Source of the DNA: a virus
IMG/VR virus record: IMGVR_UViG_3300028831_000229
Location: 53,942 to 117,941 of that record
Length of the DNA stretch: 64,000 nt
Direction: 5' to 3' (one strand)
In this document: one piece after another, positions 27,623 through 52,450 of the stretch
Layout: the number at the start of each line of letters is the position of its first letter
Numbering within the stretch: position 1 is the first letter of the stretch
Notes under the pieces: generated by a model
What the model was told of the DNA's origin: nothing
Databases searched by the model: none
Seen by the model: only the letters and a program-made list of their open reading frames with translations
Made by a program: the position numbers and the translations under genes

Positions 27623-27625
27623 CCC

Positions 27626-28078: not shown

Positions 28079-29026
28079 ATGACGGCTCTATCAGTTTTCC
28101 CCGGCCAGACCGCGAAGGAGGTCTCGCCGAATCCGAAGTGCAACAACTGCCTCCACTACATGAGCAACGGCGGTCGCTCCGGCGTCTGCGTCATCGGCTT
28201 GAGCCCGTGGCTGTGCGGTGATGGCGACAACCAGGTCGCCGGCTACGCTCCGCTGGATGGCCAGGCTCCGTCCGATCCCGGCAGCTTCGCCGATCCGGGT
28301 CGTGCGAACGCGAACGTTGACCAGCTTCAGATGGTGCCGATGTCGCTCACCGTGCTCGGCGACGAACACGCAGAGATGGCGAAGAGCATCCACGACGAGC
28401 TGGATCGGCCGCAGAAGATGTGCTGCCCGCTCCACCAGAACTCCGGCGTCGCGAAGAGCTACAACGCGAGCGTCGGTGCCGTCGTGTGCCAGTGCAAGCG
28501 CATCGCGAGCAAGAGCGTGGCGCAGAAGCTGTGGAAGGCGCTCGAGAACAAGGAGCGCGTGCACCTGACGTTCAACGACGTCGTGTTCTTCGTGCGTGGC
28601 ATCCGCAAGGGCATGACGCCGTTCGACATCGCCATCTCGAAGCTCCACGCCGGCACCGACAACTCCGGTCTGAACAAGTCGCTCTACGCGCCGGACAAGC
28701 TCAAGCTCGGCGACAACAACGCGCTCGCGAAGAGCCTCTACGGTGACGACTGGACGTCGCAGTTCACGGGCACGCCGTTGTTCGACGAAGCCGTGAAGCT
28801 GCGTGAGCGCGAGATCGAGCATTGCGAGGCTGAGCTGAAGCGTCGCATCGAGCGCGCAGCGCAGCGGAAGAAGGAGGCCGCGCAGGCGGCGAAGATCCAG
28901 GCCGAGAGCCCGTACGATTACGAGGCCGAGTACCAGCGCGACGAGAAGCTGCGCATCGACAAGTCGAAGCTGATGCTCAAGCTCCAGCAGCACCGCAACA
29001 AGCAGCTCTCGCCGAAGAAGGGATAG
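28079..29026 (+). CDS. head-region protein with multiple K-[S/A/G] motifs
   Basis: TAAGGAG RBS; MAKS, VAKS, LWKA, IRKG, LNKSLY, LAKSLY; directly before the portal gene. Confidence 0.75.
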   Translation: MTALSVFPGQTAKEVSPNPKCNNCLHYMSNGGRSGVCVIGLSPWLCGDGDNQVAGYAPLDGQAPSDPGSFADPGRANANVDQLQMVPMSLTVLGDEHAEMAKSIHDELDRPQKMCCPLHQNSGVAKSYNASVGAVVCQCKRIASKSVAQKLWKALENKERVHLTFNDVVFFVRGIRKGMTPFDIAISKLHAGTDNSGLNKSLYAPDKLKLGDNNALAKSLYGDDWTSQFTGTPLFDEAVKLREREIEHCEAELKRRIERAAQRKKEAAQAAKIQAESPYDYEAEYQRDEKLRIDKSKLMLKLQQHRNKQLSPKKG

Positions 29027-29029
29027 CCC

Positions 29030-30877
29030 ATGCAGGTCGAACCGACTCCACCAGCGTATCCGGTCACACCGGACATGCGAAAGGCGTTCGCCGACGCGTT
29101 CGAGGAGCTGCGCGACAAGGCGTGGACTCTCGAGCCGTCCACTGCGGTGAAACCCTCACCGCAGCAGCCGAAGTCGTGGCTCACCGATCCGTACGCACTG
29201 ATGGAGACGGTCGGCATGGGCTACCGCAACGCACCGAGCGTGTTGACGTTCGATACGCTGCGCATGACTGGCGATCGGAACACCGTCATCGCGGCAATCA
29301 TCCTCACGCGCGTCAATCAGGTCGCTGCGTTCTGCCGCCCGCAGGAGAACAAGTACAGCGTCGGCTTCAAGATCAGGTTGCGCGGCAGCGCGCACATGCA
29401 TCGCCGGCCGACCAAGGAAGAGAACGCGAAGGCGCAGTTCATCGAGCACTACCTTCTCAACACCGGGCTCGAGTTCAACCTCGGACGTGATGGCTTCGAG
29501 CAAGGCGTGCGCAAGCTCGTTCGCGACTCGCTGACCTACGACCAGATGACGTTCGAGAAGGTCCGCACGTTCGGCGGTCGGCCGCACAGCTTCCACGTCG
29601 TGCCGGCCGACACCATCCGCATCGTGGCGCCGAAGATCCCCAAGGGCACGCCACCGGATCGAGCGGATCTGAAGCGCCAGCTCAAGTACGTGCAGGTCAT
29701 CAACGGCGAGATCGTCACCGAGTACACGCACGACGAACTCGCGTTCGCGGTGCGCAACCCGCGCTCGTACATCAAGGTCTACGGCTACGGTCTGCCGGAG
29801 ATCGAGGTGCTGATGACGACCGTCACCTCGCACCTCTGGGCGGAGGAGTGGAACCGGCGGCAGTTCTCGCAAGGCTCGACGATCAAGGGCGTCGTCAACT
29901 TTCAGGGCAACATCCCGGCTCAGCAGTTCGAGGCGTTCAAGCGCCAGTGGTACGCGCAGATCAGCGGTGTGAGCAACGCGTGGAAGACGCCGGTGGTGAA
30001 CACCGACGGCATGACGTTCATCCCGCTTCAAGGGAACAACGTCGAGATGGGGTACCAGATGTGGATGGAGTACCTCATCAAGATCGCGAGCGCCATCTAC
30101 CAGATCGATCCGGCCGAGATCAATTTCGACCTCCGTGGTGGCTCGCAGCAGCAGCCGCTCTTCATGTCGTCGAACGAGGCGCAGCAGAAGGTCAGCAAGG
30201 ATCGTGGGCTCCAGCCGCTGCTCCGGTTCGTCGAGGACACCGTCAATCGGCATGTGGTCTGGCAGATCGATGACGCCTTCGAGCTGGCGTTCGTGGGCCT
30301 CGATGCCAAGACCGAAGACCAGGCGATGCAGCTGCGCCAGCAGCAGGTCACCACCATCTACACGCTCAACGAGGTGCGTGCGATGGAGGACTTGCCACCG
30401 CTGAAGCACGGCGACATGCCGCTGAACCCTGTCTACGCTGGTGCCAAGCAGCAAGCTGACATGGCGGAGCAGCAACAGCAGATGGGTGGCATGCCTGGCG
30501 GCGCACCTGGCGGTGGAGGCATGCCTGGTGGTCAGCCAGGCATGCCTCCTGGCCAGGACCAGCAGGATCAAGGTCAGGAGGCCGAGCCTGGCGGTCAGCC
30601 GGCGCCAGCACAGCCGTATGCGGGTCGCTTCGCCGGCAAGCAGCCTGGTCAGGAAGAGAAGCAAGGCGCCGACAACCTGCGGCGTTTTCACGACGAGGCC
30701 AGCGACGATTCGACCTCATCGCCGGAGCGTGGTGACCACGAGACGTCATCGGACAGCGACGACTCGTCGGAGGACAAGCGCTACGTTCATCTTCACGACT
30801 GGGACTCGACAGTGCACGCGTCCGTCAACGACAACGACCTCGTCAAGTCGACCGTCGTCTACGACGTCATCGAGTAG
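29030..30877 (+). CDS. portal protein
   Basis: IILTRVNQV, LVRDSLTYDQ, RNPRS..YGYG.PEIE, F.QG....G, NAWKTPV, IDPAEI, SKDRGLQPLL, TLNEVR; SPO1/Twort-like portal with Gly/Gln/Pro tail. Confidence 0.93.
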   Translation: MQVEPTPPAYPVTPDMRKAFADAFEELRDKAWTLEPSTAVKPSPQQPKSWLTDPYALMETVGMGYRNAPSVLTFDTLRMTGDRNTVIAAIILTRVNQVAAFCRPQENKYSVGFKIRLRGSAHMHRRPTKEENAKAQFIEHYLLNTGLEFNLGRDGFEQGVRKLVRDSLTYDQMTFEKVRTFGGRPHSFHVVPADTIRIVAPKIPKGTPPDRADLKRQLKYVQVINGEIVTEYTHDELAFAVRNPRSYIKVYGYGLPEIEVLMTTVTSHLWAEEWNRRQFSQGSTIKGVVNFQGNIPAQQFEAFKRQWYAQISGVSNAWKTPVVNTDGMTFIPLQGNNVEMGYQMWMEYLIKIASAIYQIDPAEINFDLRGGSQQQPLFMSSNEAQQKVSKDRGLQPLLRFVEDTVNRHVVWQIDDAFELAFVGLDAKTEDQAMQLRQQQVTTIYTLNEVRAMEDLPPLKHGDMPLNPVYAGAKQQADMAEQQQQMGGMPGGAPGGGGMPGGQPGMPPGQDQQDQGQEAEPGGQPAPAQPYAGRFAGKQPGQEEKQGADNLRRFHDEASDDSTSSPERGDHETSSDSDDSSEDKRYVHLHDWDSTVHASVNDNDLVKSTVVYDVIE

Positions 30878-30886
30878 GAGCACGCC

Positions 30887-33568
30887 ATGAAGCTCGTCAT
30901 CGACCTCTCGAAGGGCCGCCCGAAGGGGTCCACCAACAAGGACCACAAGTGGATCGCGCGCTACACGAACGCGAAAGGCGAGATCGTGCGCGTCTACCCG
31001 GACAAGCGGCATGGTGTGATGACGGACAAGGAGCAGCTCAAGCTGCATCCTGGTGTGTCGATCAACCAGGTCGTGAGCGACGTGATGATCGGCGGTCCGA
31101 CTGGTGAGACGAAGCGCGATGGTCGTCCGAGCGTGCGCGAAGGCGAGTTCGTGCGCTACGAGGTGGCACACGAGAGCGAGCTGCGTGACCCGCGCAATCG
31201 CGAGAACTACACGCGCGACGCGATCTCTCGCGAGAAGGTCGGGCAGTACCACGTGTTCGGCTATCCGAAGGTGCACGCCATCGAGCGCGATGAGAAAGAG
31301 AAGCCGGTGCGCTTCGCCGGCTACACGCACATCGAGTACCACCCGTCGGTGCGTGCGCACGGCTACCGGACGCCGAAGAAGATCGAAACCTTCAAGGTCG
31401 AGCCTCACGAGATCAAGACGACGGAGGAACAAGCTCCGCAACGCGGCTTCAACGCGGCGGAGCTGCCGCTCCATGGAGACCGTGGTCCTCAGCGCATCGC
31501 TGGCGGCTCTGTGTCCGGGCGCGGTCCGGTAGCGCCTCCGCACACGAAGAAGGAGCACGACTTCTCGATGGAGTCGATCGCTCGACGTGAGCAGATCGAG
31601 AACATGCGTCTCGACGAGCAGGTCGATCCGCTCTCGTTCGCGGCGAAGCTGTACGACAAGGCAGCGTTGAAGGCCAAGGAGAAGGCGACACCCGGTGCGC
31701 GTTCGGTGCTCGAGTTCCAGGACTGGCAGCTCGCGAAGTACCACGATCGTCAAGAGCTGATGGACAAGCTCCAGAAGCAACCTGTCGGCGCGCTCATCTC
31801 GCTCGGCTACGCCAAGCCGACTGCGACGTCTCGCAAGCTCAACGAGGCGCTCATCGCGGAATGGACGCCGATCATCATGGGCCTGAGCGGCGACAACTTC
31901 GCTGCGTTCAAGGAGACCGACGACTACCGCGCCGCGGCAGCGCGCGATGCAGAGCGCACGAAGCGCGGGCTCCAGCGCAACAAAGGAGGCACCGACTCGC
32001 GGAAGTACGTCAACGCGTACAAGCGAACCGTGGTGAGCGACCTCTTCCAGGCTGGCGCCGAGAAGCTGCTGCGCATCGCTCGGCAGTACGAGGTCGACAC
32101 GGAGAATCCGCGCCATCGCTTCGACAAGCTCGCCTACGCTTCGGTAGCGAATGAGATCCGCAAGCAGAGCCGCATCAAGGCAGAGGAAGCTGGCCTCCTC
32201 GTACCCGTGAAGCACGAAGGCGAGATCGAGCAGGCGATGCGCGAGAACGCGCGCGGCGGCGGATCGATGGAGCCGCTCTCGCCGCATGAGGCTGCCGAGC
32301 TGAAGCAAGTCACGCCGGTTGCGCGAACCGCGCTCGCCGAGATCATGCCGAAGCTCCCGGATGCATACAGGCGTGTCGTGGAGGCACGCCTGTGGCTCGA
32401 CGAGCCGTCGGACGGTGGCGTGCCATTGCTCGATGCTCCGCAGTCTCGCGCGGAGACGATGACGCGCAAGCAGCGTCACGAGAAGCTCGATGAGAAGATC
32501 GCAGAGGCTGAGGAGCGCGGAGAGACCGTGGCGCGCGACCGACGCAAGCCGCGTTCGTGGGAGCGCGAGTGGACCGGCTTCGGTTCGATCGCTGACAAGT
32601 ACCAGACCTGGATCGATCCAGAGACCGGTACCTCGTTCAACATCGACGAGTACAGTGTTGGCCACCAGCGTGAGGTACTCCAGAACTACTACCGCATGGG
32701 CGTCGCTCACATCATCCGCGAGCTGTCGGTGCCCGTGACGCGCACGAAGCCTGGGAAGCACGACGCGCCGGTTTCGCATCCTCGTGCGTTCCAGCCGAGC
32801 GCCGAGTGGAAGCAGCGCGAGAACCACGTCATCGTGCCGCTCACGAACAAGGAAATCGCGCGCCTCTCACCGGAGGAGCAACTGACCTACACCGCAGTCG
32901 GAGGTGAACCCCGTGTGCTCACGCAACAAGGCAAGGCTGTCAAGCGCTACCTCCAGATCGAGACCAAGCTGGCTACTCAGAATCGCCGTCGGTGGATGGC
33001 TCCTGGTCATCAGCGCGAGGTGGATACTTCGACCGTCTCGATCGAGAAGCTGAAGAAGCCGCGCGCCGTCGGTTGGAAGATCGAACACACCTCTCCGCTC
33101 GAGAACCAAGCGGTGCGCTTCTTCACGTCGTCGGCCAACCAGGCGCTGGCTGGTCGTCTCGGGATGCATGATCTGCACGAGTACGCGCAGCAGGTGCACC
33201 AGCAGAACGTCTCGCCGGGCACGTACGCGGAGAACCTCTACCGCCGAGCGCGAAAGCACTACAAGGTGTTCCACGAGGTCAACAACATGACCGACAAGCA
33301 GCTCGATCGTGAGCACAGCCAGCACGCGCGTCGTGTGCAGGTGCTTCAGAGCAAGCTGCGCACGGTGAAGGACGACGACACGCACAAGCGGATCCTCCAC
33401 GACATCTCGGTGTCCGAGGGGCGCGTGCACATCATGGACTTCGTTCGGCAGACGCGTGGCACCACCAAGAGCATGGTGGTCACCAAGAAGGACACCCCAT
33501 TGTCGCTCATCAAGGCGTTCCTCGACTACGACTTCGAGCTGGATCGGCTCGGTGTGGAGATGAACTGA
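30887..33568 (+). CDS. 893-aa head-region protein containing a sigma-70-like domain (regions 2 and 4)
   Basis: SDLFQAGAEKLLRIARQYEV...RFDKLAYASVANEIRKQSR (region 2-like); LAEIMPKLPDAYRRVVEARLWLD and REVLQNYYRMGVAHIIREL (region 4-like). Confidence 0.65.
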   Translation: MKLVIDLSKGRPKGSTNKDHKWIARYTNAKGEIVRVYPDKRHGVMTDKEQLKLHPGVSINQVVSDVMIGGPTGETKRDGRPSVREGEFVRYEVAHESELRDPRNRENYTRDAISREKVGQYHVFGYPKVHAIERDEKEKPVRFAGYTHIEYHPSVRAHGYRTPKKIETFKVEPHEIKTTEEQAPQRGFNAAELPLHGDRGPQRIAGGSVSGRGPVAPPHTKKEHDFSMESIARREQIENMRLDEQVDPLSFAAKLYDKAALKAKEKATPGARSVLEFQDWQLAKYHDRQELMDKLQKQPVGALISLGYAKPTATSRKLNEALIAEWTPIIMGLSGDNFAAFKETDDYRAAAARDAERTKRGLQRNKGGTDSRKYVNAYKRTVVSDLFQAGAEKLLRIARQYEVDTENPRHRFDKLAYASVANEIRKQSRIKAEEAGLLVPVKHEGEIEQAMRENARGGGSMEPLSPHEAAELKQVTPVARTALAEIMPKLPDAYRRVVEARLWLDEPSDGGVPLLDAPQSRAETMTRKQRHEKLDEKIAEAEERGETVARDRRKPRSWEREWTGFGSIADKYQTWIDPETGTSFNIDEYSVGHQREVLQNYYRMGVAHIIRELSVPVTRTKPGKHDAPVSHPRAFQPSAEWKQRENHVIVPLTNKEIARLSPEEQLTYTAVGGEPRVLTQQGKAVKRYLQIETKLATQNRRRWMAPGHQREVDTSTVSIEKLKKPRAVGWKIEHTSPLENQAVRFFTSSANQALAGRLGMHDLHEYAQQVHQQNVSPGTYAENLYRRARKHYKVFHEVNNMTDKQLDREHSQHARRVQVLQSKLRTVKDDDTHKRILHDISVSEGRVHIMDFVRQTRGTTKSMVVTKKDTPLSLIKAFLDYDFELDRLGVEMN

Positions 33569-36500
33569 TGCGGATGCACAAGCCAGCTACCGTTCTTCCT
33601 CTGCGTATCGCGCAGGTCCCGCTGCCGGCGTACCCGGTGCTCGGCAACATCAAGCCTGGTGGCGTGCTGCTCAGCGGCAAGCTCGCGAGCGCGGTCGACA
33701 CGCTCAAGCTGGACACGCGCGACATGCCGCCGTCGCGCTTCAAGAGCGTGCGTGACGACATCTCGCGCTACAGCCCGATCCCTGTGACGCGTGTGGCGTT
33801 GCGACGCAGCGAGCACGCGTACATCGGGATCATCGACTCGAACAACGAGCCGTACATCTTCGCGCTCAACAGCCAGGGCATCCTCGTCAAGCGCGCGCCG
33901 GACGCCGAGCACGCGTGGCAGCTGTTCGACCACTACATGGATGCCGAGCGCGCAACGGCGCTCGAGACACGGCGCTACGTCGCGGCCAAGGAGCAAGCAT
34001 CACTCGTCATCAAGGCCGACATCAAGCAGCCGGGTTCACGTGGCGGGAAGTTCTACTTCGACAAGCACGGCAAGGTGCGCTACGGCAAGCAGCCGATGCA
34101 CGATCACCACGTGCACGTCGAACTGCCGGCAAAGCACGAGCTGGAAGGTGACGCGGCAGAGCTGCACAAGCACGTTCGCAAGCAGAACCCTGCCACCGTA
34201 CACGAGGCGCGGAAGCACATCCGGTCGTGGATCAAGGACAACTACAGCGCGAACGCCAAGCAGATCGATCAGACGACCGCGCACATGCTGCGCTACTTCC
34301 ACGAGGAGGGTGCGCTCCACCTGCACCAGCACGATACGCAGCCGACCGCACAGCCGACCAAGGACGTTCCGCACTTCTTCAAGAAGCGCGAGGCGCTCAC
34401 GCGTCCGGTTCTGCCATCACCGTTCGACGCGCAAGGGACGCGTCTCCTGGTCAACGGATCGCCTGTGCGGCTGTCGGCTGACGCCGAGCACGCGTGCTAC
34501 GCGTTCGCCAAGCGCTTCCTCGTCAACGAAGGCACGGTGAAGGGTCACGCCGAGTTCGTGCGTGGCTTCGAGAAGAGTCTCCAGTCGATGGGCGTGCCGA
34601 AGGGCACCTACGACTACAAGAACTTCGTCAAGCGCATCACCACCGAGCCGGAGAAGGAGAAGGCACCGAAGAGCAAGGAGCAGCCGACGCCGAAGACGCA
34701 TCCTCACCTCTTCATCAAGCAGGACGGTCAGTTCGTCCGACTCTCGGACGTTCGGACGCCGGCAGGTAACTTCTACACCGGCAAGGGCAAGCGCGGTACG
34801 TGGGCTCGTGCTCTGCGCGAAGAGGACATCACGATGAACGTCGCCAACGGCGGCGCTCCGAAGGGTTGGAAGGGCAAGGTCATCTTCGATCCCACGAAGG
34901 ACTACTACCTCACGTGGCGTCATCCCGACACCGACGAGATCGGCTACGTCTATCCGTCGCGCGCGTCTGCCTACCAGAGGAAGTTCGAGGAGGCGTCGAA
35001 GCTCGGTCTCAACATCGACCGCATCCGCGAAGGCGTGGTGCGTGACATCGAGAAGAGCGGCAACAGCATGCCGGAGCGCGTCGCAGCGCTCTGCACCTAC
35101 TTGATCGACAAGGAGCACTTCCGCGTGGGAGAAGAGTCGCACGCTGAGGACACCGGCACGTTCGGTATCGGCTCGCTGCGCGTCGAGCACGTGAAGGTGG
35201 ACGGCAAGCACGTCATCTTCGATTTCCCGGGGAAGAAGGATGAGCCGTGGCGCCGCGTCGTCGACTTCAGCAAGATGCCGGAGGCGCTCCACATCATCAA
35301 GAGCTGCCTGGCGCACAAGCACAAGAAGGATCGCGTCTGGGAAGAGCTGGGTGGTGGCTGGTCGGTGGACAGCAAGGTCATCAACGAGTATCTCGACGGC
35401 TACTCGAAGGACGGCGTGAAGTTCACGGCGAAGATGTTCCGCACGTTCCACGCGAACAAGTACATGAAGAAGATGCTCGACACCCTCGAGACGCTGGCCG
35501 CAGAGCACGGCTGGGATGATGCGACGGTGAAGAAGATCTACAAGGGGTTCAAGGTCAACGACAGAGCCGGCAAGAAGCTGCTCGACATGAAGGCGCCTGG
35601 TGGCGGCACGGTGCGCCAGGCACTCGGTCTCGAGGAGAATCACGGCGCCAAGGGCAAAGGCAAGGCGATCATCGGCGTGCTTCCGACCATCGCAACGAAG
35701 CTCGGTCACACGGTGTCCAGCTGCCGCAACAGCTACATCGATCCGGTGCTCGTGACGCCGTTCGGCGCGAAGCATGGATGGGACGAGCGCACGCTCGGCG
35801 AGAAGAAGACGCGTGACGATCTTCCGGCGTTCGAGAAGAAGCACGTCGCGAAGCCGGCGAAGCAACCGAAGGCGCCTGCATCGCCGATGAAGAAGGCCGG
35901 GATTCCGAGCCATCAAGAGCTGGCAAAGGCCAGCGAGAAGCTGCTGACCAAGGTCACGCAGAAGCACGCCGATCTGGCTCCCATGATCGATAGCTACAAG
36001 GAGACGGCGATCAAGCGGCGCTGGAACGTGCCGGCAGAAGCGTGTGGCAATTGCGATCGTGCGACCGGAGAGTTCGTCTCACAGGCACCGGCGTCGGCTG
36101 GCTTGAAGAAGTACCGCTTCGACACCTTCACGCCGGAGGGTATCGCGCGCGTTCAGAAGCTGTACGGGATGAGCGACAAGACCATCGCCGAGATGCGGAA
36201 GCGTGACCGCAAGTCGATCAAGGACGGTCACGCTGATCCGGAAGACATGTTCCACGAAGTCGCGGTCACGCCAGACGGCACCGTGATCGACTGGACGGCC
36301 AATCAGTTTGCACAGAGCGACAAGACGCTGCCCGTTCCTTTTGTGTACAAGATTGACCACACAAAGAACAGCAAGCCGCACAGCGGCATCGAGGACGAGG
36401 AGGCGTACGCGAAGGCGCTGCCGTACGGTCACGTGGCCTACGCGCGGCACTCGAAGACCGGCAAGCTCGTCCAGGTGAAGGCGAAGGGCGTGAAGCCGGT

Positions 36501-40302: not shown

Positions 40303-40372
40303 CAGGATCAACCACCGCAAGCGTCGAGTGACGCTGGCGGGCATCAATGCAACGTCACTCACGGAGAACATC

Positions 40373-40951: not shown

Positions 40952-41191
40952 ATGATCGCACGCTGCAAGTTCCAGGTCACGAATGTGCTCCCGGCGTATC
41001 CGAACTCGGAGCCGGAGAGCACCGCCAAGCGTCTGGTGCTCGAGACGCGATACGACAACACCGTCGCCGAGGATCAGGCGTTCACCAAGTACACGCCGAC
41101 CGGTCGTATGGACGTCGTGATCGATAACCCGAACGTCACGAGCCAGCTCAACGTCGGCGATCACGTCTACATCGACATCACGAAGATCTAG
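40952..41191 (+). CDS. small phage protein of unknown function
   Basis: AGGAGG RBS; RCKF...ED..F.KYTP.G.....IDNP motif recalled from other phages. Confidence 0.75.
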   Translation: MIARCKFQVTNVLPAYPNSEPESTAKRLVLETRYDNTVAEDQAFTKYTPTGRMDVVIDNPNVTSQLNVGDHVYIDITKI

Positions 41192-41221
41192 CGACCACGC
41201 AACCAACCACGCAGGCATACA

Positions 41222-44200: not shown

Positions 44201-46363
44201 GTGCGTGGTGGTCTGCGCGACTCGCTGCGGCGGCAGTCTGAGATCACGCCGGAGCTGTTCGACCCGTCGTACAAAGGGGGCTCGCCGAAGATCGAGAAGT
44301 TCGTCGCCGACGCAGTGAAGCACTTCAAGGGTGGTGGTGGTACGCAGGACAAGCCGTTGGTGATGTTCTCGTCGTTGCCTGGCAAGGCGTTCCCCATCGT
44401 GAAGCGCGAGCTGGTGAAGGCCGGCATCGATCCGTCGCTCATCGGAGAGATCCACGGTGGCAAGAGCGCTCGTGAGCGTGCGTTCGAGCAGGACATGACG
44501 AACGCCGGCAAGCGCAAGATCCTGCTCGTCGGCACCAAAAGCGGTGGCGCTGGCCTCAACCTCCAGAAGAAGGCGAACCGCGTGATGTACCTCGACCAGC
44601 CGATGGACCCGGCGTCGAAGCGCCAGGCGGTTGGTCGCGTGTGGCGTCCTGGTCAGCGCGACACGGTGCTGGAGTCGAATTACACGTTCACGTCGCCGTA
44701 CGGTGAGAGCTGGGACGAGAAGTCGAAGCGTCGGCTTGGCGCCAAGCAGGCGCTCGTCACGGCGATGATGGGGGACATGGACATGCAGTCACTCGACTTC
44801 ACGCAGGCGGCGAACGACGCGCTCGGTGGTCTCGGCATCAAGCCGGAGCCGCAGCGCGAGCCGCAGAAGCCGTGGGGCAACAGCGGCAAGAAGAAGAAGC
44901 GCATCATCGGCGGTCAGAACGACAACGATCCGGACAACCTCATCGACGACGAGGAGGCGGACGTCTCGTCCATGAAAATCTCGCCGGAGGTCGAAGCGCT
45001 TGCACGTCGCATGCGTCCCGAGAAGCTCATGCGTGATCCGGAGGAGGAGTTCGAGGAGGACGACGACGCGCCGACGCTCGAGGAGATGCTCAACCCCAAG
45101 ACGCACGAGAACCTCATCAGCGAAGCGAAGGGTCTCGCACAGAAGATGAACGTGGGCGAGGAGCAGCGTCTGTGGGATCGCGCGTTCGACATGAACGCGA
45201 TGCCGATCAAGTGGCGCACGCAGGAGGTGCTGCTCCAGAGCGCGAAGAACACCAAGCAGCGTGAAGAGGCGAAGGCCGGCGCTGACCGTCTCGCTGCGCA
45301 GTGCCTCGGGTGGTACCGTGACCTCGGCAAGGAAGCGGCTGTCGCTCAGAAGCAAGGCCACACCGACGTCGCGAAGAAGCTGATCGCGCAGGCTGAGAAG
45401 TTCCGCAACGACATGCCGGACGCGTTCAAGCAGTACAAGGATCCGAAGGATGCTGTTGCCGCGCTGAGTGCGAAGGCGACGGGTGCGGAGCCGCCACCGA
45501 AGAAGAGTGCGCAGGAGATCAAGATTGAGACACAGGCGAAGAACGTCAAGCTCGCCAAGGAGCAGGAGGCGCTCGTCAGCGAGTCCGGTGTCGAGCCCAA
45601 GAAGGGCGAGCACATCACCAGCGCGAAGAAGGATCCGGCGAGTGGCCAGATCGTCGTCAACCTCCGCTCGGCAACCGGCTCGCGTGAGGTGAAGGTGCCT
45701 GGCAAGGTGCAAGAAGCGAAGGACGTGTTGTCCGATCTCGACAAGCAGACCGGCGGGAAGCCGGCCAAGGGCGCAGTCTCGCTTGCGAAGAAGTCACCGT
45801 TTGAGGCAGACTCGCACGACCACAAGATCTTCACGCTCCTTCAGAAGAAGGGCGTGACGACGGAAGAAGAAGCGAAGGAAGCGATGAAGCCGTACCTGGC
45901 GAAGCTCGGTGTGAAGAAGAACGAGCTGGACAAGTGGGCTTCGACGATGCTCAAGCACTTCAAGGGTGCTGGTGCGTTCGACAAGGCGTCTGCTCCGAAG
46001 GCCGAGGCATCTGCTCCGAAGGCCGAGGCCAAGCCTGCGACGAAGGAAAGCGCGTCGCTCGTGGGCGCCGACGACGCGAAGCTTGGTGCTGCTGTGCAAG
46101 AAGCAGCCGACAATGCGCCGTCGTCGCACGGCTTTGGCGACGACAAGGTGTTCGTCCATCGGCTCTACGAGAAGCTGAAGGGAAGGCTCGGCACCATGAC
46201 GATGGACCAGTTCAAGCGGAAGCTCGTCGACCTGAATCGCCAGCGTCACGTCACTCTGTCTCGCGCTGATGTGGTCGGTGCGATGGACAAGGACGACGTC
46301 AAGAACTCGACCATCGAGGACAGGGGCGCTACGTTCAACTTCATCAATCGCAAGAGGAGCTAA
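41222..46363 (+). CDS. 1713-aa polyvalent protein with SNF2-family helicase/ATPase
   Basis: HQRQGINW, LAFDAGMGKT (I), FIDEVH (II), MTATP (III), GGAGLNLQ (V), QAVGRVWRPGQ (VI). Confidence 0.92.
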   Translation: MNLDDLFGGVILGGTTLVKAQVITPVRAARLPALRDLTAKLEALYDERLSLMMEDIDRVLANADARKALGLYVVDGGLSGGSDLRKAVLHEVQQPQFINDLFKAAPKTVPTRVGGNKSDQGTAQKFEHGTYSTHQTPKGKTQLTFRSHTGVTEDLGQHGDPKAVESAQSKHLASHGYAPTGKKVGRPSTGQKAERKEVTQATAGSRGGKYYVTASGKIRYGTKPQGEFAREADPSEIAQHLSHYRPLPFMGTNGNDAKLIKHLMDNGEELGFSDTDIQFLSLWYGAHDKKTGSFKGGTLFRDFRDMFKDSKTKKDGLTDDMLADDLSKLKLNVDGQSMSYQEAVMEFMKLQFWEGDKTKSEDERATYFHETIQPLMDDLFDKYEKTKTNPEVLKHMEDIGKHIEQTRYKFFFNAAQHDDAMKDLDEKLRQEPDPTKMTTDALAAMSALDMLFIPKEGERQVGRGAGHLKGVVSPNATLLDDEENPLLAEPHRLSTLNNSQLQMLYVASQLNGMWDGEQRKYDATSTMHSKLGDEALKRLARKAGTDSTQLSLVRKQLDESVKTIAQQLNDANTGKNPLLKKFIEHGADVLNDSTAADKIRSDMADLEELRTKALEAQKNDEFELPKSMADGRLGAVHQKTPLPHQLYTNDKGEQQAYGMFKHQRQGINWMLAAKRGVLAFDAGMGKTPTVITFLEHLRETGKMKEGEQAMIFLPPSVMNQWPKEINDYAPGVKNDEVLNLAGLSLAQRKEVLKSDVAKQAKYILVSTGTLNGGGEKEGADIAGGDFDDGVVNDGTGGTDDEMTELLKSIQGPVFIDEVHTGGFKEAGTVRHEIAKKVMDGREYSFGMTATPMPNGPSDLFHLGNLFAPGKIGTADEWAGATHGVQWNDGEARWEVGNPEGLQEMRDKVRPFVFHKLITDPEVVKDVGSLLGEKHEDPDLMKIQPSDDHPIWEYHKPGGKVDQLAQALFSRMVQEAEEAGDDDRLERLNKSAGFVRGGLRDSLRRQSEITPELFDPSYKGGSPKIEKFVADAVKHFKGGGGTQDKPLVMFSSLPGKAFPIVKRELVKAGIDPSLIGEIHGGKSARERAFEQDMTNAGKRKILLVGTKSGGAGLNLQKKANRVMYLDQPMDPASKRQAVGRVWRPGQRDTVLESNYTFTSPYGESWDEKSKRRLGAKQALVTAMMGDMDMQSLDFTQAANDALGGLGIKPEPQREPQKPWGNSGKKKKRIIGGQNDNDPDNLIDDEEADVSSMKISPEVEALARRMRPEKLMRDPEEEFEEDDDAPTLEEMLNPKTHENLISEAKGLAQKMNVGEEQRLWDRAFDMNAMPIKWRTQEVLLQSAKNTKQREEAKAGADRLAAQCLGWYRDLGKEAAVAQKQGHTDVAKKLIAQAEKFRNDMPDAFKQYKDPKDAVAALSAKATGAEPPPKKSAQEIKIETQAKNVKLAKEQEALVSESGVEPKKGEHITSAKKDPASGQIVVNLRSATGSREVKVPGKVQEAKDVLSDLDKQTGGKPAKGAVSLAKKSPFEADSHDHKIFTLLQKKGVTTEEEAKEAMKPYLAKLGVKKNELDKWASTMLKHFKGAGAFDKASAPKAEASAPKAEAKPATKESASLVGADDAKLGAAVQEAADNAPSSHGFGDDKVFVHRLYEKLKGRLGTMTMDQFKRKLVDLNRQRHVTLSRADVVGAMDKDDVKNSTIEDRGATFNFINRKRS

Positions 46364-46366
46364 GCC

Positions 46367-46777
46367 GTGGCACACGAACTCGACAACCACTACATCTTCG
46401 AGACCGTCAAGGCGAAGAACAGCAAGAGCGGGAAGGCTCTGAAGGTGACCACGCCGAGTGACGCCGTGCGCATCCACAGCAAAGGGGAGCTGCTCGCTCA
46501 GCTGGAGCACTACTCGCGTCCGTTCATCAAGCACACGGTGCAGCCGAACACGCCGTTCGCGCGGAAGCACTACGTCGAGAAGATCCGGCCGGCGCTGCGC
46601 TTCTACTGCAAGAAGTTCGGGGTGAAGGTGCCGCAGTGGCTCGAGAACGACGACTACTTCAAGAACCTCGATGACGATCAGAAGCGCGACCTCTTCGGTA
46701 CCACGGAGCTGTCGTTCCGCGAGTTCATGCCGGCGAGCAAGTTCGGCAGCGCCGCGGTCGAGCAGGAGCAGGGGTAA
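46367..46777 (+). CDS. hypothetical protein
   Basis: GAGGAG RBS, GTG start, TAATG overlap. Confidence 0.75.
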   Translation: MAHELDNHYIFETVKAKNSKSGKALKVTTPSDAVRIHSKGELLAQLEHYSRPFIKHTVQPNTPFARKHYVEKIRPALRFYCKKFGVKVPQWLENDDYFKNLDDDQKRDLFGTTELSFREFMPASKFGSAAVEQEQG

Positions 46778-47730
46778 TGGCGGCGAAGCTCCTCACCGAC
46801 AAGCAGCGGCGTGCGGTCCAGCGCGCGATCAACGATCACCATCTCGCCTTCATGGCGGAGGTGCTCGGTCCGTCGGCCATCTCGGAGGAGGACTACAAGC
46901 GGCTCAAGGCCGCGGGCAAGATCCGCAACTCGACACCGCTCGTCACGGACGCGGCTACCGCGGCGCACATCCTCGGCGTGGTCACGCACGGCATGGCGAG
47001 CAAGGATGCCGAGAAGCTCAGCGCTGGCACGTTCTGGGAGATGGTGCGCGAGCAACCGCACGTGATGTCGCAGACGGAGCGCGAGGCGGTCGCCATCACG
47101 CGTGAACGCGTCGGCGAGCACATCAAGGGCCTCGGCAACAAGCTCGACACGGCGACCGGCCACATCATCGTGGACGCGAACGACAAGCTGCGCCGGCAGA
47201 ACCTCGGCAAGGTCCGCGAGGCGGTAGCCGCAGGCACGGCTTCACGTGAGAACGCGCAGCAGATCGCGCAGCGCATCCGCACGGCAACCGGAGATGTGAA
47301 GCGCGACTGGGCGAAGATCGCGCAGACCGAGATGCACAACGCGTCCGAGGAAGCGAAGGCTGTAGCGTTGATCGAGCAGCACGGTGGCGATCCTCTCGTG
47401 TACAAGCGCACGCGACCGGACGCCTGCCCGTTCTGCAAGCTGCTCTACATGGACGGCAACAAGCCGCGCGTGTTCCGTCTGAGCGATCTGCAAGCGAACG
47501 GCACCAACGTCGGACGCAAGGCCAACCGTCCACGGCTGTCGGGCTCGAACGCTACCGAGTACAAGGCGGTGCTCGGTGCGATGCATCCGTGGTGTCAATG
47601 CACGCTCCACCATCTGCCGGAAGGCATGGCGTTCAACGCGGACGGCCAGCTCACCTACGTCGGCACCAAGAAGTCGATGCTGACCGTCGAGTCGCTCGAC
47701 CGGGCTCTTCTCAACCACGAGTGCGAGTGA
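46777..47730 (+). CDS. MuF/SPP1 gp7-like minor head protein
   Basis: RDWAKIAQTEMHNA, DACPFC, MHPWCQCTL. Confidence 0.85.
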   Translation: MAAKLLTDKQRRAVQRAINDHHLAFMAEVLGPSAISEEDYKRLKAAGKIRNSTPLVTDAATAAHILGVVTHGMASKDAEKLSAGTFWEMVREQPHVMSQTEREAVAITRERVGEHIKGLGNKLDTATGHIIVDANDKLRRQNLGKVREAVAAGTASRENAQQIAQRIRTATGDVKRDWAKIAQTEMHNASEEAKAVALIEQHGGDPLVYKRTRPDACPFCKLLYMDGNKPRVFRLSDLQANGTNVGRKANRPRLSGSNATEYKAVLGAMHPWCQCTLHHLPEGMAFNADGQLTYVGTKKSMLTVESLDRALLNHECE

Positions 47731-47731
47731 C

Positions 47732-48601
47732 ATGAAGAGCGCGTTCGCCAAGATCGTCACCGAGACCAAGCCGGTCTCTGTGAAGCCGCTGAAGAAGGGC
47801 ATCAGTGGTGCGCTGCTGGCGACCTACCGCGGCGGTCTTCGCGCCGTGCTCAAGCTCGCCAAGGAGAAGCTACCGAACGGCAACAAGCGTCAGCGCGGAC
47901 TGCCGGTCATCACGCAGCCGCAGCGCGAGGTCGCGTTCTACGAGCTGGCGGTCTACCTCGGCAAGGACTACGAAGCGCTGGTGCCGGAGACGGTGCTCAC
48001 GCACTACAACGGCACGGTGGCGAGCGCGCAGCTCTACCTGCCTGGCGCGATGAACCTCCACGACATCAACCCGAAGCTGGTCGACCTGCGTGGCTCGAAC
48101 CGCTGGCGCGACGAGCTGAAGGCGACCGCGTTGAAGGTGCCCAAGCCGTTCTGGCGCAAGCTGCTGGCGCTCGACATCCTCGCAGGCGCGCGCGACCGGC
48201 ACGCGCATAACGTCGGCGTGACGATGCACCTCAAGGACAACAAGCCGACGTTCCGGCTGCACGCCTGGGATAACGCCTGCACCTTCGGCTTGACCTTCAA
48301 GCGCTACCACAACGTTTTCCACAAGTACATCTTCCGCGACTACGTCAACTTCGACGACGTGTGGCCGGTTTGGGACACCATCACGCTCGACGGGTTGACC
48401 GGCGCCATCGGACCTTACCTCGAGCCGGCCGAGGTCACCGACACGTTCCTCCGCTGCCAGTTCTTTCAGGACTACCCGTACCGGCTGCCGTGGCGCGTCG
48501 TCAGCGAGGGCAAGGACCGCTCGAGGGACTTCCCCGACTACGCGGCCTACTTCAAGCCGGTCCTGGAGCAACCCCAGCATCTCGTGGCGTTGTCCGCGTA
48601 A
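47732..48601 (+). CDS. PI3/4-kinase-like (HipA/CtkA-like) protein kinase
   Basis: GISG..., AVLK, REVAFY, LVPETV, SAQLY, DIL....DRHAHN, WDNA..FG. Confidence 0.8.
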   Translation: MKSAFAKIVTETKPVSVKPLKKGISGALLATYRGGLRAVLKLAKEKLPNGNKRQRGLPVITQPQREVAFYELAVYLGKDYEALVPETVLTHYNGTVASAQLYLPGAMNLHDINPKLVDLRGSNRWRDELKATALKVPKPFWRKLLALDILAGARDRHAHNVGVTMHLKDNKPTFRLHAWDNACTFGLTFKRYHNVFHKYIFRDYVNFDDVWPVWDTITLDGLTGAIGPYLEPAEVTDTFLRCQFFQDYPYRLPWRVVSEGKDRSRDFPDYAAYFKPVLEQPQHLVALSA

Positions 48602-48637: not shown

Positions 48638-49348
48638 ATGCATGAACAAGTAGAGCGGCTCCTGGAGGAGGACGACTTCTCCATGTACGTGCCGGGTACT
48701 GCGACCAGCGGCTTCGAGGTGCTCTACAAGAGCGGCTCGAAGGAGGACATCGAGCAGACACGACCGATCGGCGGCTACTGCTCGACCGAGACGCTCGATC
48801 GGCAGGAAGAGGTCGTGGTAGCGAAGGGGCTCGACTTCAGCGAGTTCGTGGCGTGGGGGTGGTTCAACGACAACCACAAGCAAGGCACCAGCGAGGTGCT
48901 TGGCTATCCGAAGCTCGCGCGGCTGGTGAAGGGCAACCGCTGGTGGACGGAAGGCAACCTCCTTCACGGCTACTCGAACTCCGACAAGATCTGGGAGTTG
49001 GCCAAGGCGCTCAAGAAGAGCGGTGCGCCACGCAAGCTCGGCTTCTCGATCGAAGGCAAGGTCCGTGAGCGCGACGGCGGCAACCGCATCGTTCGCGCCA
49101 CGGTGCGGAACGTCGCCATCACCAACTGCCCGGTGAACACCGACTGTTCCTGGGACATCATGTCGAAGGCGTTCGCGCCGATCGACATCGTCGAGCGCGC
49201 TCAGCGCAAGGCGATGCACAAGAGCACCGAGTACGTCAGGCAGACCGCGTACTCGTTCAACGAGGCTGTGGAGAAGGTTCGCAGGATGCGACCGCACCTC
49301 AGCAAGTCAACCTGTCAGCGCATCGTACGCCTGGCGATGCACCGCTAG
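48638..49348 (+). CDS. prohead protease
   Basis: GYCST...DRQEEVV...GLDF, WFNDNH, LGFSIEG, VAIT..PVN; position before scaffold and capsid. Confidence 0.9.
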   Translation: MHEQVERLLEEDDFSMYVPGTATSGFEVLYKSGSKEDIEQTRPIGGYCSTETLDRQEEVVVAKGLDFSEFVAWGWFNDNHKQGTSEVLGYPKLARLVKGNRWWTEGNLLHGYSNSDKIWELAKALKKSGAPRKLGFSIEGKVRERDGGNRIVRATVRNVAITNCPVNTDCSWDIMSKAFAPIDIVERAQRKAMHKSTEYVRQTAYSFNEAVEKVRRMRPHLSKSTCQRIVRLAMHR

Positions 49349-50125: not shown

Positions 50126-51019
50126 ATGAAGAAGAACAAGATGAAGAAGGGCGGCAAGGCCGTCGTCAGCGAAGAGGCGCTGCTGAAGAGCCTCAACGAG
50201 CTGGAGGAGGCGGTCCTCAAGGGTGGCGACGAGCTGCTCGACCAGGATCCCGAAGGTGGTCTCTCCACCGAAGGCGAGCCGCTCTCGAAGAAGGCTCCCA
50301 AGGGCAAGGCCGACGTCGCGAAGGCGGACGACGGCTCCTCGGACGATGCCTCGGACGACGAGGACGACGTCAACAAGGGCGCCGACATGTCCGACGACGA
50401 GTCCGAGGAGGACGACGGCTCCGGCGACGGTGACGGCGACGACATGTCCGACGACGAGTCCGAGGAGAAGCCGCCGATGCCGATGAAGAAGGGCAAGAAG
50501 GGCATGTCGAAGTCTCTGCGCGAGCGCGCCGACGAAGGCGAGACCACCGCGAAGGCGATCGAGGTCTCGGACTTCATCGAGTCGATGATCGACCAGGCGA
50601 GCGACGCCTACGCCGATCTCCAGAAGGCGTTCTCCGACGAGGTCGCCTCGCTCGAAGGGCGTCTCGAGAAGAGCGAGGCGTACCAGCGCAACTTCAACGG
50701 CCGGCTCGCCAAGGGCCTCGTCGACATCGGCAAGATGCTCGTCGACACCAACAAGCTCATCAAGTCGCTGGTCAACTCGCCGAACCCGCAGATGCGCAAG
50801 AGCATCCTGTCGGCCGACGAGATCCAGGAGCCGTCGCGCGGCGGCGGTGGCGGCGACGAGACGCAGCTGCACCCGGCGAAGGTCGCCGAGTGGCTGTTCA
50901 ACAAGTCGATGGCCGGCGAGATCGACTCGCTGCTCGTCACGCAGTACGAAGTTCACCGCAACATCGAGGCGCTGCCCGTTCAGGTGCGCAAGGCCCTCGT
51001 CAACGACCTCCGCAAGTAG
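50126..51019 (+). CDS. capsid scaffolding protein
   Basis: Acidic and coiled-coil, directly before the capsid gene, about 15 K-[S/A/G] motifs. Confidence 0.8.
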   Translation: MKKNKMKKGGKAVVSEEALLKSLNELEEAVLKGGDELLDQDPEGGLSTEGEPLSKKAPKGKADVAKADDGSSDDASDDEDDVNKGADMSDDESEEDDGSGDGDGDDMSDDESEEKPPMPMKKGKKGMSKSLRERADEGETTAKAIEVSDFIESMIDQASDAYADLQKAFSDEVASLEGRLEKSEAYQRNFNGRLAKGLVDIGKMLVDTNKLIKSLVNSPNPQMRKSILSADEIQEPSRGGGGGDETQLHPAKVAEWLFNKSMAGEIDSLLVTQYEVHRNIEALPVQVRKALVNDLRK

Positions 51020-51040
51020 GTCAGGAAGGAGACAAGGAAC

Positions 51041-52450
51041 ATGACCCGTATCATCGGAATGCAGGACTACGAGGGCTTCGCTGGCTTCCACGGTTTCGCG
51101 CAGGCGACCGAGTCGGACGTCGAGGCTCTGAACAAGGCGCTCGCCGCCGGCTACCAGGCGCCGCGCGCGGATGGTGGTGGTGCTCTCCGCGTCGAGTCGC
51201 TGGAGCAGACCATGCGCATCCTCACGTTCAACCAGCAGCACATCCAGTTCTGGCGGGACTTCCCGAAGCTGCCGGCCTACTCGACGGTCGAGGAGTACAA
51301 CGTCCAGACGTCGTACGGCATGGACAACGGCGGCTTCACCCGCGAGGGCGAGCTGCCGCAGGTCCAGGACGCCGGCTACCAGCGCAAGTCGGCGCTGGTG
51401 AAGTTCCTCACCACGCAGCGCGAGGTCACGCACGTGCAGACGCTGGTCAAGCCGGCGCACGGCAACCAGATCGCGCTCGAGACGACCAACGGCGCGATCT
51501 GGATCCTCCAGCAGATGGAGCAGGCGCTGTTCCGCGGCAACAGCGACATCATCCCGGAGTCGTTCGACGGCGTGTACACGCAGATCGTCGGTGATCCCGA
51601 CGCGCTCGCCACGAACGTGCTCGATCTCCGCGGCGGTGTCCTCACCGAGGACCGCATCGAGGAGGCCAGCAACCTCGTGATCGAGGGCTTCGGCGTCCCG
51701 TCCGACCTGTACGCGGCGCCGCGCGCGCTGAGCGACATGGTCAAGACGATGTACCCGCGCGAGCGCGTCGGTCTGCCGGCGCCGGTCAACGGTCGCATCG
51801 GCATGGCGGTGTCCGAGGTGCAGACCCAGGCCGGCGTGGTCCGTCTCAAGGCGAACCAGTTCCTGCGCGCCGGTGGCATCGGCAAGACCACGGCTCCGGT
51901 CTCGCAGACCGCGCCGCGCGCTCCGAACGCGCCGACCATCGCGGTCGCCGACCCCGGCGCCACCGCGGGCTCGCTGTTCACCGCGGCGGACGTCGGCACG
52001 TTCCGCTACCGCGTCACCGCGGTCAACCGCTTCGGCGAGTCCGCGGCGTCCGCGTCCTCGGCGCAGGCGATCGCGGCGGCGGGCGAGTCCGTCAACGTGA
52101 CCATCACCGACGGCGGTGGTGGCGACACGGCGACCGGCTACCGCGTCTACCGCTCGGCGGTCGGCGGCGCGGCCGGTACCGAGAAGCTCATCGGCGAGAT
52201 CAAGCGCGCCGCGTCGGGCACCACGCTCTACGCGGACCTCAACGCCGATCTGCCGGCGACCTCGCGCGCGTTCATGATGCAGATGAACCTCCAGGCGGTG
52301 AGCTTCCGCCAGCTCGCGCCGATGCTGAAGATCCCGCTCGCCACGATCGCGCTGTCGATCCGGTGGGCGCAGGTGCTGTACGGCATGCCGATCGTCTACC
52401 AGCCGCGCAAGCACGTCATCTTCAAGAACTGCTACGACCGCGTGGCGTAG
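51041..52450 (+). CDS. major capsid protein (SPO1/Twort-like) with FN3-like insertion
   Basis: LNKALAAGY...GGALRVESLEQTM, STVEEY, REG, E.ALFRGN, FDG, DLRG, YRVTAVN..GES, LAPMLKIPLA. Confidence 0.95.
   Translation: MTRIIGMQDYEGFAGFHGFAQATESDVEALNKALAAGYQAPRADGGGALRVESLEQTMRILTFNQQHIQFWRDFPKLPAYSTVEEYNVQTSYGMDNGGFTREGELPQVQDAGYQRKSALVKFLTTQREVTHVQTLVKPAHGNQIALETTNGAIWILQQMEQALFRGNSDIIPESFDGVYTQIVGDPDALATNVLDLRGGVLTEDRIEEASNLVIEGFGVPSDLYAAPRALSDMVKTMYPRERVGLPAPVNGRIGMAVSEVQTQAGVVRLKANQFLRAGGIGKTTAPVSQTAPRAPNAPTIAVADPGATAGSLFTAADVGTFRYRVTAVNRFGESAASASSAQAIAAAGESVNVTITDGGGGDTATGYRVYRSAVGGAAGTEKLIGEIKRAASGTTLYADLNADLPATSRAFMMQMNLQAVSFRQLAPMLKIPLATIALSIRWAQVLYGMPIVYQPRKHVIFKNCYDRVA

Follow-up and report, generated by a model that had tools for sequence, protein, structure and literature searches.

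A candidate address-and-cut cargo system in the head operon of a metagenomic phage with an SPO1-type capsid

The last 64 kb of the 117,941-base virus record IMGVR_UViG_3300028831_000229 (63% G+C), hereafter the window, contain a head gene module in which three giant proteins of 1858, 1713 and 893 residues are encoded between the portal and the prohead protease. We propose that they are cargo of the phage head: head proteins with leaders and lysine-site joints that would be loaded into the prohead, cut and injected, a reading to which we give a probability of roughly two in three (0.68) on comparative sequence evidence. The predicted joints at K149, K949 and K1502 of the 1858-aa protein, at K19 and K103 of the 1713-aa SNF2 protein, at K9 of the 893-aa protein and at K96 of a 240-aa protein are well supported by comparison with relatives; packaging, cutting and injection of the cargo are what we infer.

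The proposed sequence of events would begin with the addressing of cargo to the assembling prohead, by a leader of ~130 residues in the 1858-aa protein, one of ~100 residues in the SNF2 protein and a hydrophobic mini-leader of 9 residues in the 893-aa protein. A lysine-specific prohead protease would cut the capsid protein after K32 and chop the scaffold at about 14 sites, and would then take off the leaders at K149, at K19 and K103, and at K9. The 1858-aa chain would further be cut at K949 and K1502, at joints built from a hydrophobic-x-K|[A/S/G] site, a stretch of 3-10 residues and a short basic hairpin tag, and the 240-aa protein at a joint of the same type at K96. The products, a topoisomerase IB unit, two or three further modules, an SNF2 helicase and possibly a sigma-like protein, would remain in the head and enter the cell along with the DNA.

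The genes in question sit in a compact head module. Positions 28079-52450 hold 17 plus-strand genes with gaps of -4 to 70 bases. From the portal gene (29030..30877, +; Pfam Phage_portal, E 1.4e-23; phrog_12, E 1.7e-53) to the gene of a prohead protease of SPO1/Twort type (48638..49348, +; phrog_1028, E 8e-51; 49.7% identical to SPO1 gp3.2 over residues 36-188) there are 17,760 bases with 11 genes on the same strand, which confirms, coordinates included, the ~18 kb of unusual genes that the original prediction had placed there; in phage K, the protease gene lies within about 200 bases after the portal gene. Downstream follow a scaffold-like protein (50126..51019, +) and the major capsid protein (51041..52450, +; phrog_752, E 2.6e-94), which matches the solved SPO1 Gp6.1 (9vel_C) at E 9.8e-83 and the phage K Mcp (5lii_P) at E 2.7e-29, and which has counterparts in 782 phage records, with up to 38.6% identity in the SPO1 group. 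A terminator-like hairpin (52475..52505, +; 13-pair stem with 9 G-C pairs, then a T-run) closes the module and is the sole convincing terminator in the 29 kb scanned: the sole two plus-strand hits in 27000-46999 lie inside genes, and the count of 18 compares with a shuffle mean of 18.2. Because the gaps are so short and a strong terminator occurs only past the capsid gene, we read 28079-52450 as one operon, and its best explanation is a single late head operon of a phage with an SPO1-type capsid into which capsid cargo genes were inserted and there expanded. The complete or near-complete genomes G000 and G001 measure ~118 kb, and the SPO1-group records with the best capsid matches 130-150 kb; at equal capsid size, ~118-kb genomes would leave spare volume for protein cargo.

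Which rule would the protease follow? The capsid protein contains the context DVEALNK32|ALAAGY, in which the original prediction had seen LNK-ALAAGY as a cleavage site, and the motif is indeed present at K32/A33 (51134-51139), the predicted maturation cut. The corresponding context in the phage K capsid protein is QFQEDVVK24|SFQTGY. Two Protein Data Bank chains bear on it: 5lii has 463 residues and 9row 439, a difference of exactly 24, and since residue 15 of 9row aligns where residue 39 of 5lii does, the shorter chain starts at S25. The window's A33 aligns with S25 of the phage 812/K protein, and the K32|A33 site is kept in 2/2 relatives. Cleavage after lysine in the Twort-like family, as stated in the original prediction, fits K24|S25 and the chain length of 439 = 463 - 24. 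Phage K also shows 7 sites against 1.5 expected in its scaffold-like gp174 and 7 against 1.6 in its protease. From the phage K site, the chain lengths and this enrichment, a lysine rule for the SPO1/Twort protease family, and by analogy lysine specificity of the window's protease, may reasonably be inferred; our literature search returned no paper stating such a specificity for this family. Among relatives, the motif lysines are kept in 33/42 cases in the scaffold, against 10/54 for other lysines, and in 26/32 cases in the protease, against 18/36. Given its 8 own sites, the protease likely trims itself, and K18 and K606 of the portal, both kept in 2/2 relatives, are candidate trimming sites as well.

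Scored as [LIVMFY]-x-K-[SAG] against 2000 shuffles per protein, the motif is in strong excess in four proteins of the block: the scaffold (14 sites observed, 2.0 expected; the original count had been about 15), the protease (8 against 0.95), a 315-aa protein encoded from 28079 (7 against 1.7, P 0.0005) and a 203-aa open reading frame (ORF) from 40328 that contains the 188-aa protein of 40373-40939 (5 against 1.1). These four account for the excess of the whole head block, in which 62 of 646 lysines belong to a site; among the remaining called genes it is 61 of 1335 (Fisher P 2.6e-5; the per-lysine count omitted the 39141 gene and took the 40373 gene from the 40328 start). The enrichment recurs in orthologues of relatives, including one of 43% G+C: their proteases have 7 and 6 sites against 0.8, their scaffolds 13 and 10 against about 1.7, the orthologue of the 315-aa protein 6 against 1.4, and the fused counterparts of the 130-aa and 188-aa proteins 10 against 2.5 and 14 against 4.9. 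The expectation that head genes would exceed other ORFs in motif count therefore held for the scaffold, the protease and two small proteins, and failed for the three giants, whose counts are those of chance here (1858-aa protein, 10 against 9.5; SNF2 protein, 9 against 10.2; 893-aa protein, 3 against 3.4) and which are again not enriched in the relatives. By the refuting criterion of the original prediction, most motif occurrences in the giants are chance.

In the 1858-aa protein, one such site is tied to a domain that many other proteins share. Its leader domain, residues 1-149 (33568..34014, +), ends in LVIK149|A. A search of residues 1-200 against 1.84 billion representatives gave 89 hits, and the leader (residues 13-146 matched) was found in 54 other cluster representatives of 110-1547 aa, always at the N terminus, starting at residue 1-43. 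Of 51 leader proteins long enough to be judged, 40 show a site near the end of the leader (from 5 residues before it to 30 after), compared with 19.6% expected; the binomial P of 2e-19 is indicative only, as the rows are related and the expectation comes from the site density in the payloads. The site is typically preceded by a hydrophobic run (LVIK|A, LLVIMK|S, LVVTK|G), and the sequences diverge after it. What stands behind the leader varies widely: a Pfam scan of 52 leader proteins (E <= 1e-5) gave 2_5_RNA_ligase2 (2H phosphoesterase) in 12, NUDIX in 10, LigT_PEase in 7, DUF5661 in 5, Topoisom_I in 4 and EncFtn-like in 2, with the ADP-ribosyltransferase families ADPrib_exo_Tox, DRAT and ART and the GNAT families Acetyltransf_1 and Acetyltransf_7 once each. 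One leader thus precedes unrelated, swapped payloads. The 1858-aa protein itself gave no tblastn match in the phage collection and no viral-contig relative by peptide patterns.

An AlphaFold2 (AF2) model of residues 1-200, built from a 41-row alignment (pLDDT 79, above 94 for residues 61-130), shows a helix at 59-68, a four-stranded meander at 75-109 and a long helix at 113-153 that ends at the K149 site, followed by a hairpin at 161-173. Foldseek gave no match to the leader fold at E <= 0.001 in PDB or BFVD, and VIA-align over 48,161 chains reached a best Z of 5.7, to generic alpha+beta folds; this null does not establish the fold as new. Two further observations concern the leader family. 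An EncFtn-like domain occurs in two leader proteins; members of the EncFtn-like family are known cargo of encapsulins, whose shells have the HK97 fold in common with phage capsids. A distant branch of ~10 members (P0028, P0043, P0047, P0048, P0050, P0051, P0056, P0064, P0082, P0090) lacks the lysine site and shows the motif HGP-x-x-D-x-x-ER-x-P ~30 residues past the leader, possibly a signal for docking or for another kind of processing.

The second line of evidence lies in what follows the sites. Two short conserved elements recur behind them: tag A, P-G-x-R-G-G-[KRH]-aromatic ... G-x-[VI]-x-Y-G, and tag B, PYGHxAY-x-R-x-x-K-x-GK ... K-x-KG-x-KP. In the 1858-aa protein, tag A (GSRGGKFYFDKHGKVRYG; 34033..34095, +), which forms the 161-173 hairpin of the AF2 model, stands directly behind K149 (LVIK149|ADIKQP), tag B (PYGHVAYARHSKTGKLVQVKAKGVKP; 36421..36522, +) directly behind K949 (AYAK949|AL), and a second tag A (GVRGGHFHF...) behind K1502 (KVSK1502|AVPIIQRP), at the head of the last payload, residues 1503-1858 (38071..39144, + from VSK1502|A onwards). 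Each site lies 3-10 residues before its tag, and the chance that all three tags of this protein have a site in a 17-residue window is about 7e-4. BLASTP against the representatives places the same joints in other proteins: residues 1500-1843 are homologous to P0012 245-561 and P0010 314-481, where the shared module begins just past I/M-E-K|AV plus tag A, and a short homology block from 948-952 is common to seven others, tag B following leader or internal sites in P0008, P0009, P0011, P0012, P0020, P0048 and P0049. In every case, both blocks start right behind the lysine site and open with a short tag. Over the whole set, 56 of 82 tag A or B instances have a site <=16 residues upstream, compared with about 10% expected; the residue after the lysine (P1') is A in 42, S in 10 and G in 4, the spacing to the tag is 2-12 residues, and some proteins carry two to four tag cassettes.

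The original prediction had taken the sites to mark domain borders, which K149, K949 and K1502, each followed by a tag, bear out. K776 fares less well: the homologues P0006 and P0007 align to residues 8-757 only, and because this homology stops and P0007 ends there, we place a module border near residue 757, close to K776; P0006, the one homologue that continues, has no site at the position, and no tag follows. Additional observations on the tags are that a further type, K|G-[IL]-[KR]-YG-[RK]-K-x-[ED]-W ... VPHS[ST]WW, stands right behind the leader site in L011, L012, L015, L019 and L020 and in P0031, P0036, P0037 and P0041, that a QLGLF-/QLGFxF-type peptide precedes site-less tags in P0053, P0061, P0063, P0066, P0078, P0081 and P0088, and that the SNF2 protein starts with MNLDDLFGG (41222-41245). 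The QLGLF-like and DLDDLF peptides resemble the sliding-clamp-binding consensus QL[SD]LF. In the abstracts and text passages that our literature search covered, neither this leader family nor joints of lysine site plus tag are described; the virion protein table (Table S4) of Thermus phage Lalka27a and the supplements to Iyer et al. could be relevant to these claims.

The SNF2 protein has a leader of its own at residues 1-103 (41222..41530, +), with LVK19|AQ, LRK86|A and LFK103|A. In the seven homologues compared (window, P0002-P0004, G001, L004, L003), the first site, [LI][VL]K|AQ, is found at residues 19-25 in 7/7 and the second, mostly DLFK|[AG], at residues 86-104, again in 7/7; 2-3 sites fall within their first 125 residues, against 2-6 in the 1350-1590 residues beyond. 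Motif lysines as a class are kept no better than others (3/9 against 58/161), those kept being K19, K103 and K807. The 893-aa protein (30887..33568, +) opens with the mini-leader MKLVIDLSK|G, whose K9 context LVID-x-x-K|[GA] is kept in G001, where the 1340-aa homologue, 27% identical, starts ...MLVIDVVK|A; comparable mini-leaders, for example MMLILK|A and MMRLVLK|A, stand at the start of other proteins with tag A. All sites listed in the original prediction do exist (K149, K776, K949 and K1502 in the 1858-aa protein; K19, K86 and K103 in the SNF2 protein; K9 and K876 in the 893-aa protein; K606 in the portal; K177 in the protease), with the reservation that TTK-S at 859-862 of the 893-aa protein lacks a hydrophobic P3. 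For the SNF2 and 893-aa proteins, what relatives retain of them is K19, K103 and K9.

Beyond its leader, the 1713-aa SNF2 protein consists of an N-domain, the SNF2 core and a mobile C-module. The helicase core, residues 660-1149 (43199..44668, +; Pfam SNF2-rel_dom, E 1.4e-16; Helicase_C, 4e-10; ResIII, 6e-8), is missing from homologues of 467-631 aa in 8 related contigs, and in all-against-all BLASTP residues 1-68 and 204-571 correspond to a helicase-free 472-aa protein in L004. The protein matches phrog_11801 and phrog_62, profiles of about 1900-2300 residues, phrog_11801 only at residues 581-731. The C-module, ~90 residues at 1620-1709 (46079-46348), was also seen inside the leader proteins of L011, L015, L019 and L020 (36-41% identity) and at the end of P0006.

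Several observations weigh against our reading. The phage and all relatives compared are metagenomic contigs, the lysine rule rests on deposited chain lengths, and nothing among solved structures resembles the leader fold closely enough to suggest what it binds. The giants show no enrichment of the motif over shuffles, and a position-weight matrix trained on the sequences flanking 23 sites of the scaffold, protease and capsid proved overfitted and did not separate cargo sites from background in its ranking. Contrary to the original expectation that sites would lie outside folded domains, 4 of the 10 in the 1858-aa protein (K336, K345, K496, K578) fall inside the topoisomerase-matching residues 281-640, and of the internal SNF2 sites 0/6 are conserved in G001. 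Tag A of the SNF2 protein (GSRGGKYYVTASGKIRYG; 41831..41893, +) has no canonical site directly before it (ERK|E upstream, with Q for K in P0003), and 26 of the 82 tags lack a site, many being preceded by a QLGLF-like peptide and then (R)K-x-VQ-x-P. The conserved K-[A/S/G] could serve the structure or binding surface of the tag itself and not be a cut site.

Taken further, this last point leads to an alternative in which the leaders are removed and the chains stay whole in the head, the tags being functional modules, such as hairpins that bind DNA or host factors, to which the lysine belongs, and the 1858-aa protein being a single polyvalent protein. The tags are basic and a hairpin in the AF2 model, which suits such a role, as do the site-less tags and the SNF2 tag. 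Polyvalent proteins, which are predicted to be packaged in capsids, are described as single multidomain chains, and the N4 virion RNA polymerase is packaged unprocessed (PMC5512222). We nevertheless regard whole chains as unlikely: the same hydrophobic-x-K-[A/S/G] stands before three or four unrelated tag types and also in the capsid, scaffold and protease, and P1' is limited to A, S and G. The spacing between site and tag varies from 2 to 12 residues, so a separate element fits better than a single fold.

How constant is the arrangement beyond the window? Five viral contigs encode proteases 61-63% identical, among them G001, a complete record of 117,394 bases with 43% G+C. Matching a degenerate DNA pattern of the leader core brought up 12 viral contigs, of which 10 were new. 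In all-against-all BLASTP, residues 14-142 of the 1858-aa protein match the N termini of a 320-aa protein of G001 and a 603-aa protein of L004. The distance from portal to protease ranges from 17.8 kb in the window through 13.3 kb in G001 to 8.2 kb in L004, and the cargo position between the two is constant in the 12 contigs. The gene order is fixed as well: 147-aa, 315-aa, portal, leader protein, 130/188-aa, SNF2 N-domain protein, 136-aa, MuF-like, PI3K-like, protease, 108-aa, 124-aa, scaffold, capsid. Where the portal's downstream side is shown, 10 of 11 contigs have the leader gene as its immediate neighbour, and G001, like the window, has one gene between the two; the 893-aa gene is missing in 10 of the 11 related contigs showing the portal's downstream side. 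All 10 leader proteins in the new viral loci have a site behind the leader, and 7 of them also have a later site coinciding with K|ALP-x-K (tag C). As a separate observation, G001 (L005, L007) and the window are 20 points apart in G+C (43% and 63%) with gene order kept, their portal, protease and capsid proteins being 55-60% identical.

This constancy bears on another possibility, which we consider improbable: that the giants are not virion cargo and instead act as late cytoplasmic enzymes placed in the head operon, with leader and tags serving oligomerisation, localisation or docking to replication factors. Motif counts at chance level in the giants would be expected of such proteins, SPO1-group phages do encode SNF2 helicases outside their head modules, and the QLGLF-like and DLDDLF peptides resemble clamp-binding motifs. 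Set against this are the unchanging place between portal and protease, the operon shared with scaffold and capsid genes, the protease-type site kept exactly at leader ends, and the free swapping of payloads, typical counter-defence enzymes, behind one leader.

Head cargo of the kind we propose would, in this genome, comprise DNA-handling enzymes. The identities of topoisomerase IB and SNF2 are solid by sequence homology. The 1858-aa protein consists of the leader, the topoisomerase IB and three or more other modules delimited by breaks in homology. The topoisomerase IB payload, residues 281-645 (34408..35502, +), matches Pfam Topoisom_I at E 5.8e-32 (residues 470-645) and the solved topoisomerase I 6z01 at E 8e-28 (residues 281-640), with SYIDP at about residue 723. 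The next module, residues 777-949 (35896..36414, +; ending in YAK949|A), is papain-like on an atlas lead to a Tox-PL-2 cluster (score 0.88, rank 11), a weak identity, and gave no Pfam match at E up to 5. Modules 950-1502 and 1503-1858 had no family match, and Pfam at E up to 5 gave nothing credible for residues 651-1311 and 1312-1858, for the ends of the SNF2 protein or for the 240-, 289- and 315-aa proteins. Likewise weak is the sigma identity of the 893-aa protein, whose residues 374-543 match TIGR02937 at E 4.2e-5 with 23.2 bits, below the cut-off of 42.9, and which gave no Pfam match and no match to a solved sigma factor. For the 289-aa protein, a kinase call (PI3K/PI4K- or HipA-like) has moderate support: an atlas score of 0.96 for PI3K/PI4K clusters (structural TM 0.71) and of 0.94 for HipA-like clusters, and the motifs DRHAHN and WDNACTFG. 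Its AF2 model, from 5 sequences, reached a pLDDT of 46.6, too low for a fold search, and a profile search at E up to 10 gave no match among solved structures. Of the enzyme names originally given, topoisomerase IB and SNF2 thus hold, the kinase is plausible and the sigma factor and papain-like enzyme are doubtful; delivery as a transcription and topology kit would be a further step beyond these identities.

A papain-like module raises the question of whether the chains might process themselves: residues 777-949 would act as the peptidase in place of the prohead protease, either ahead of packaging or once injected. Autoproteolysis by internal peptidase domains has been proposed for polyvalent proteins by Iyer et al., who also note that P1 DdrB is processed (PMC5512222); the atlas lead to a papain-fold toxin cluster at 0.88 points the same way. 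We think this very unlikely, as no hidden Markov model (HMM) supports a peptidase here, the majority of leader proteins that share these joints have no peptidase family, and the joint motif is the one enriched in scaffold and protease.

The remaining genes of the block are smaller. Upstream of the portal, the site-rich 315-aa protein (28079..29026, +), syntenic in related contigs, keeps 4 of its 7 sites in G001, where the orthologue has 6 against 1.4 expected; it had no family match and is a candidate head-internal or core protein degraded by the protease. The 240-aa protein (39141..39863, +), whose gene start overlaps the preceding gene by 4 bases, contains MRK96|ALPKKDKS, that is tag C, a basic tail and a conserved C-domain; its residues 88-240 match the C termini of the 320-aa leader protein of G001 and the 603-aa leader protein of L004 (BLASTP), from which it appears to be the C-terminal half of an ancestral leader protein, split off as a separate gene. 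The site-rich 130-aa and 188-aa proteins (39910..40939, +) lie in different frames here and are one fused gene in L004 (874 aa), G001 (404 aa) and several new loci, so that a split, deletion or frameshift could have occurred in this genome. The 79-aa protein (40952..41191, +) matches phrog_6978 (E 3e-9, function unknown) and has no sites. Before the protease lies a core block (46367..48601, +) of a 136-aa protein, a weakly MuF-like 317-aa protein (Phage_Mu_F, E 0.0037, 18.4 bits against a cut-off of 29.6) and the 289-aa kinase-like protein, present in every related contig that reaches the region; the 289-aa protein, a conserved core gene, has 0/4 conserved sites.

If the address-and-cut reading is true, a large uncultured phage group would inject ready-made enzyme sets with its DNA, here a topoisomerase IB and an SNF2 motor, and relatives would inject enzymes that degrade nucleotide signals or ADP-ribosylate, widening the range of virion-delivered counter-defence and take-over factors. 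A sequence rule, leader or mini-leader, lysine site and tag, would then predict cargo from genomes, and nature would offer a tag for loading foreign proteins into SPO1-type capsids. More tentatively, at somewhat less than even confidence, phages with SPO1-type heads may use a portable grammar of address, cut and tag, through which almost any enzyme could be loaded as part of a polyprotein and released as a separate injected protein. The set would be for DNA handling here (topoisomerase IB, SNF2 ATPase and a sigma-like protein), a phage counterpart of the enzymes in a poxvirus core, and for counter-defence in relatives (2H phosphoesterases, NUDIX, ADP-ribosyltransferases), with the retained tags acting as a head-retention or ejection signal.

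Finally, how does the proposed system compare with known ones? Herelleviridae (SPO1, Twort/K) have the same capsid protein and protease and, as predicted here, an aligned capsid cut position; they differ in that 17.8 kb of cargo and core genes separate portal and protease in the window and about 200 bases in phage K. The giant phages phiKZ, 201phi2-1 and SPN3US belong to other capsid and protease lineages than the window, and their propeptide motif ends in Glu. We know of no shared leader domain or tag cassettes in them. The likeness is that many of their head proteins, injected ones included, lose propeptides at a simple head-protease motif (PMC10052503, PMC7411985, PMC5694885). The Dar proteins of P1 (DarB, DdrB, DarA, Hdf) are likewise large, helicase-bearing head proteins with N-terminal signals and a link to head morphogenesis (PMC12810830). 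They differ from the SNF2 protein, which has no methyltransferase domain by Pfam; only the helicase part matches, and leaders and joints are unrelated.

A close functional parallel is T4, in which the internal proteins IPI-III and Alt carry an N-terminal address peptide, are loaded into the prohead, lose the address to gp21 and are injected with the DNA. Address, head loading, removal by the protease and injection are all features we propose here. The T4 rule is hydrophobic-x-Glu, however, and the window rule hydrophobic-x-Lys|[A/S/G]; the proteases are of different lineages; T4 cargo consists of single small proteins with a tag of 10-19 residues, whereas the window has a folded leader of ~130 residues, chains of up to 1858 residues, internal joints and retained tags. 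The system is thus not a member of the T4-type CTS class, though it may work alike. ADP-ribosyltransferases are also among the payloads behind the window's leader family, and T4 Alt is itself an ADP-ribosyltransferase (PMC5512222).

The polyvalent proteins (Iyer, Burroughs, Anand, de Souza, Aravind 2017, PMC5512222) combine several enzymes in one giant chain, have their genes next to those for portal, MuF and terminase, and are predicted to travel in the capsid and be injected; among the domains typical of them are SNF2 helicases, kinases, ADP-ribosyltransferases, GNATs and peptidases. In Thermus phage Lalka27a, virions were found to contain a 1715-aa helicase whose gene lies among the structural genes (preprint 10.64898/2026.04.20.719267); our search of the phage collection gave no Thermus match to the SNF2 protein. 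In the passages of PMC5512222 consulted, processing of polyvalent proteins is ascribed to peptidase domains inside them, and no shared leader domain and no joints of cut site plus tag are described, 'prohead protease' occurring once, in a reference title. Judged by its multi-enzyme chains and its head neighbourhood, the predicted system of the window falls within the polyvalent proteins.

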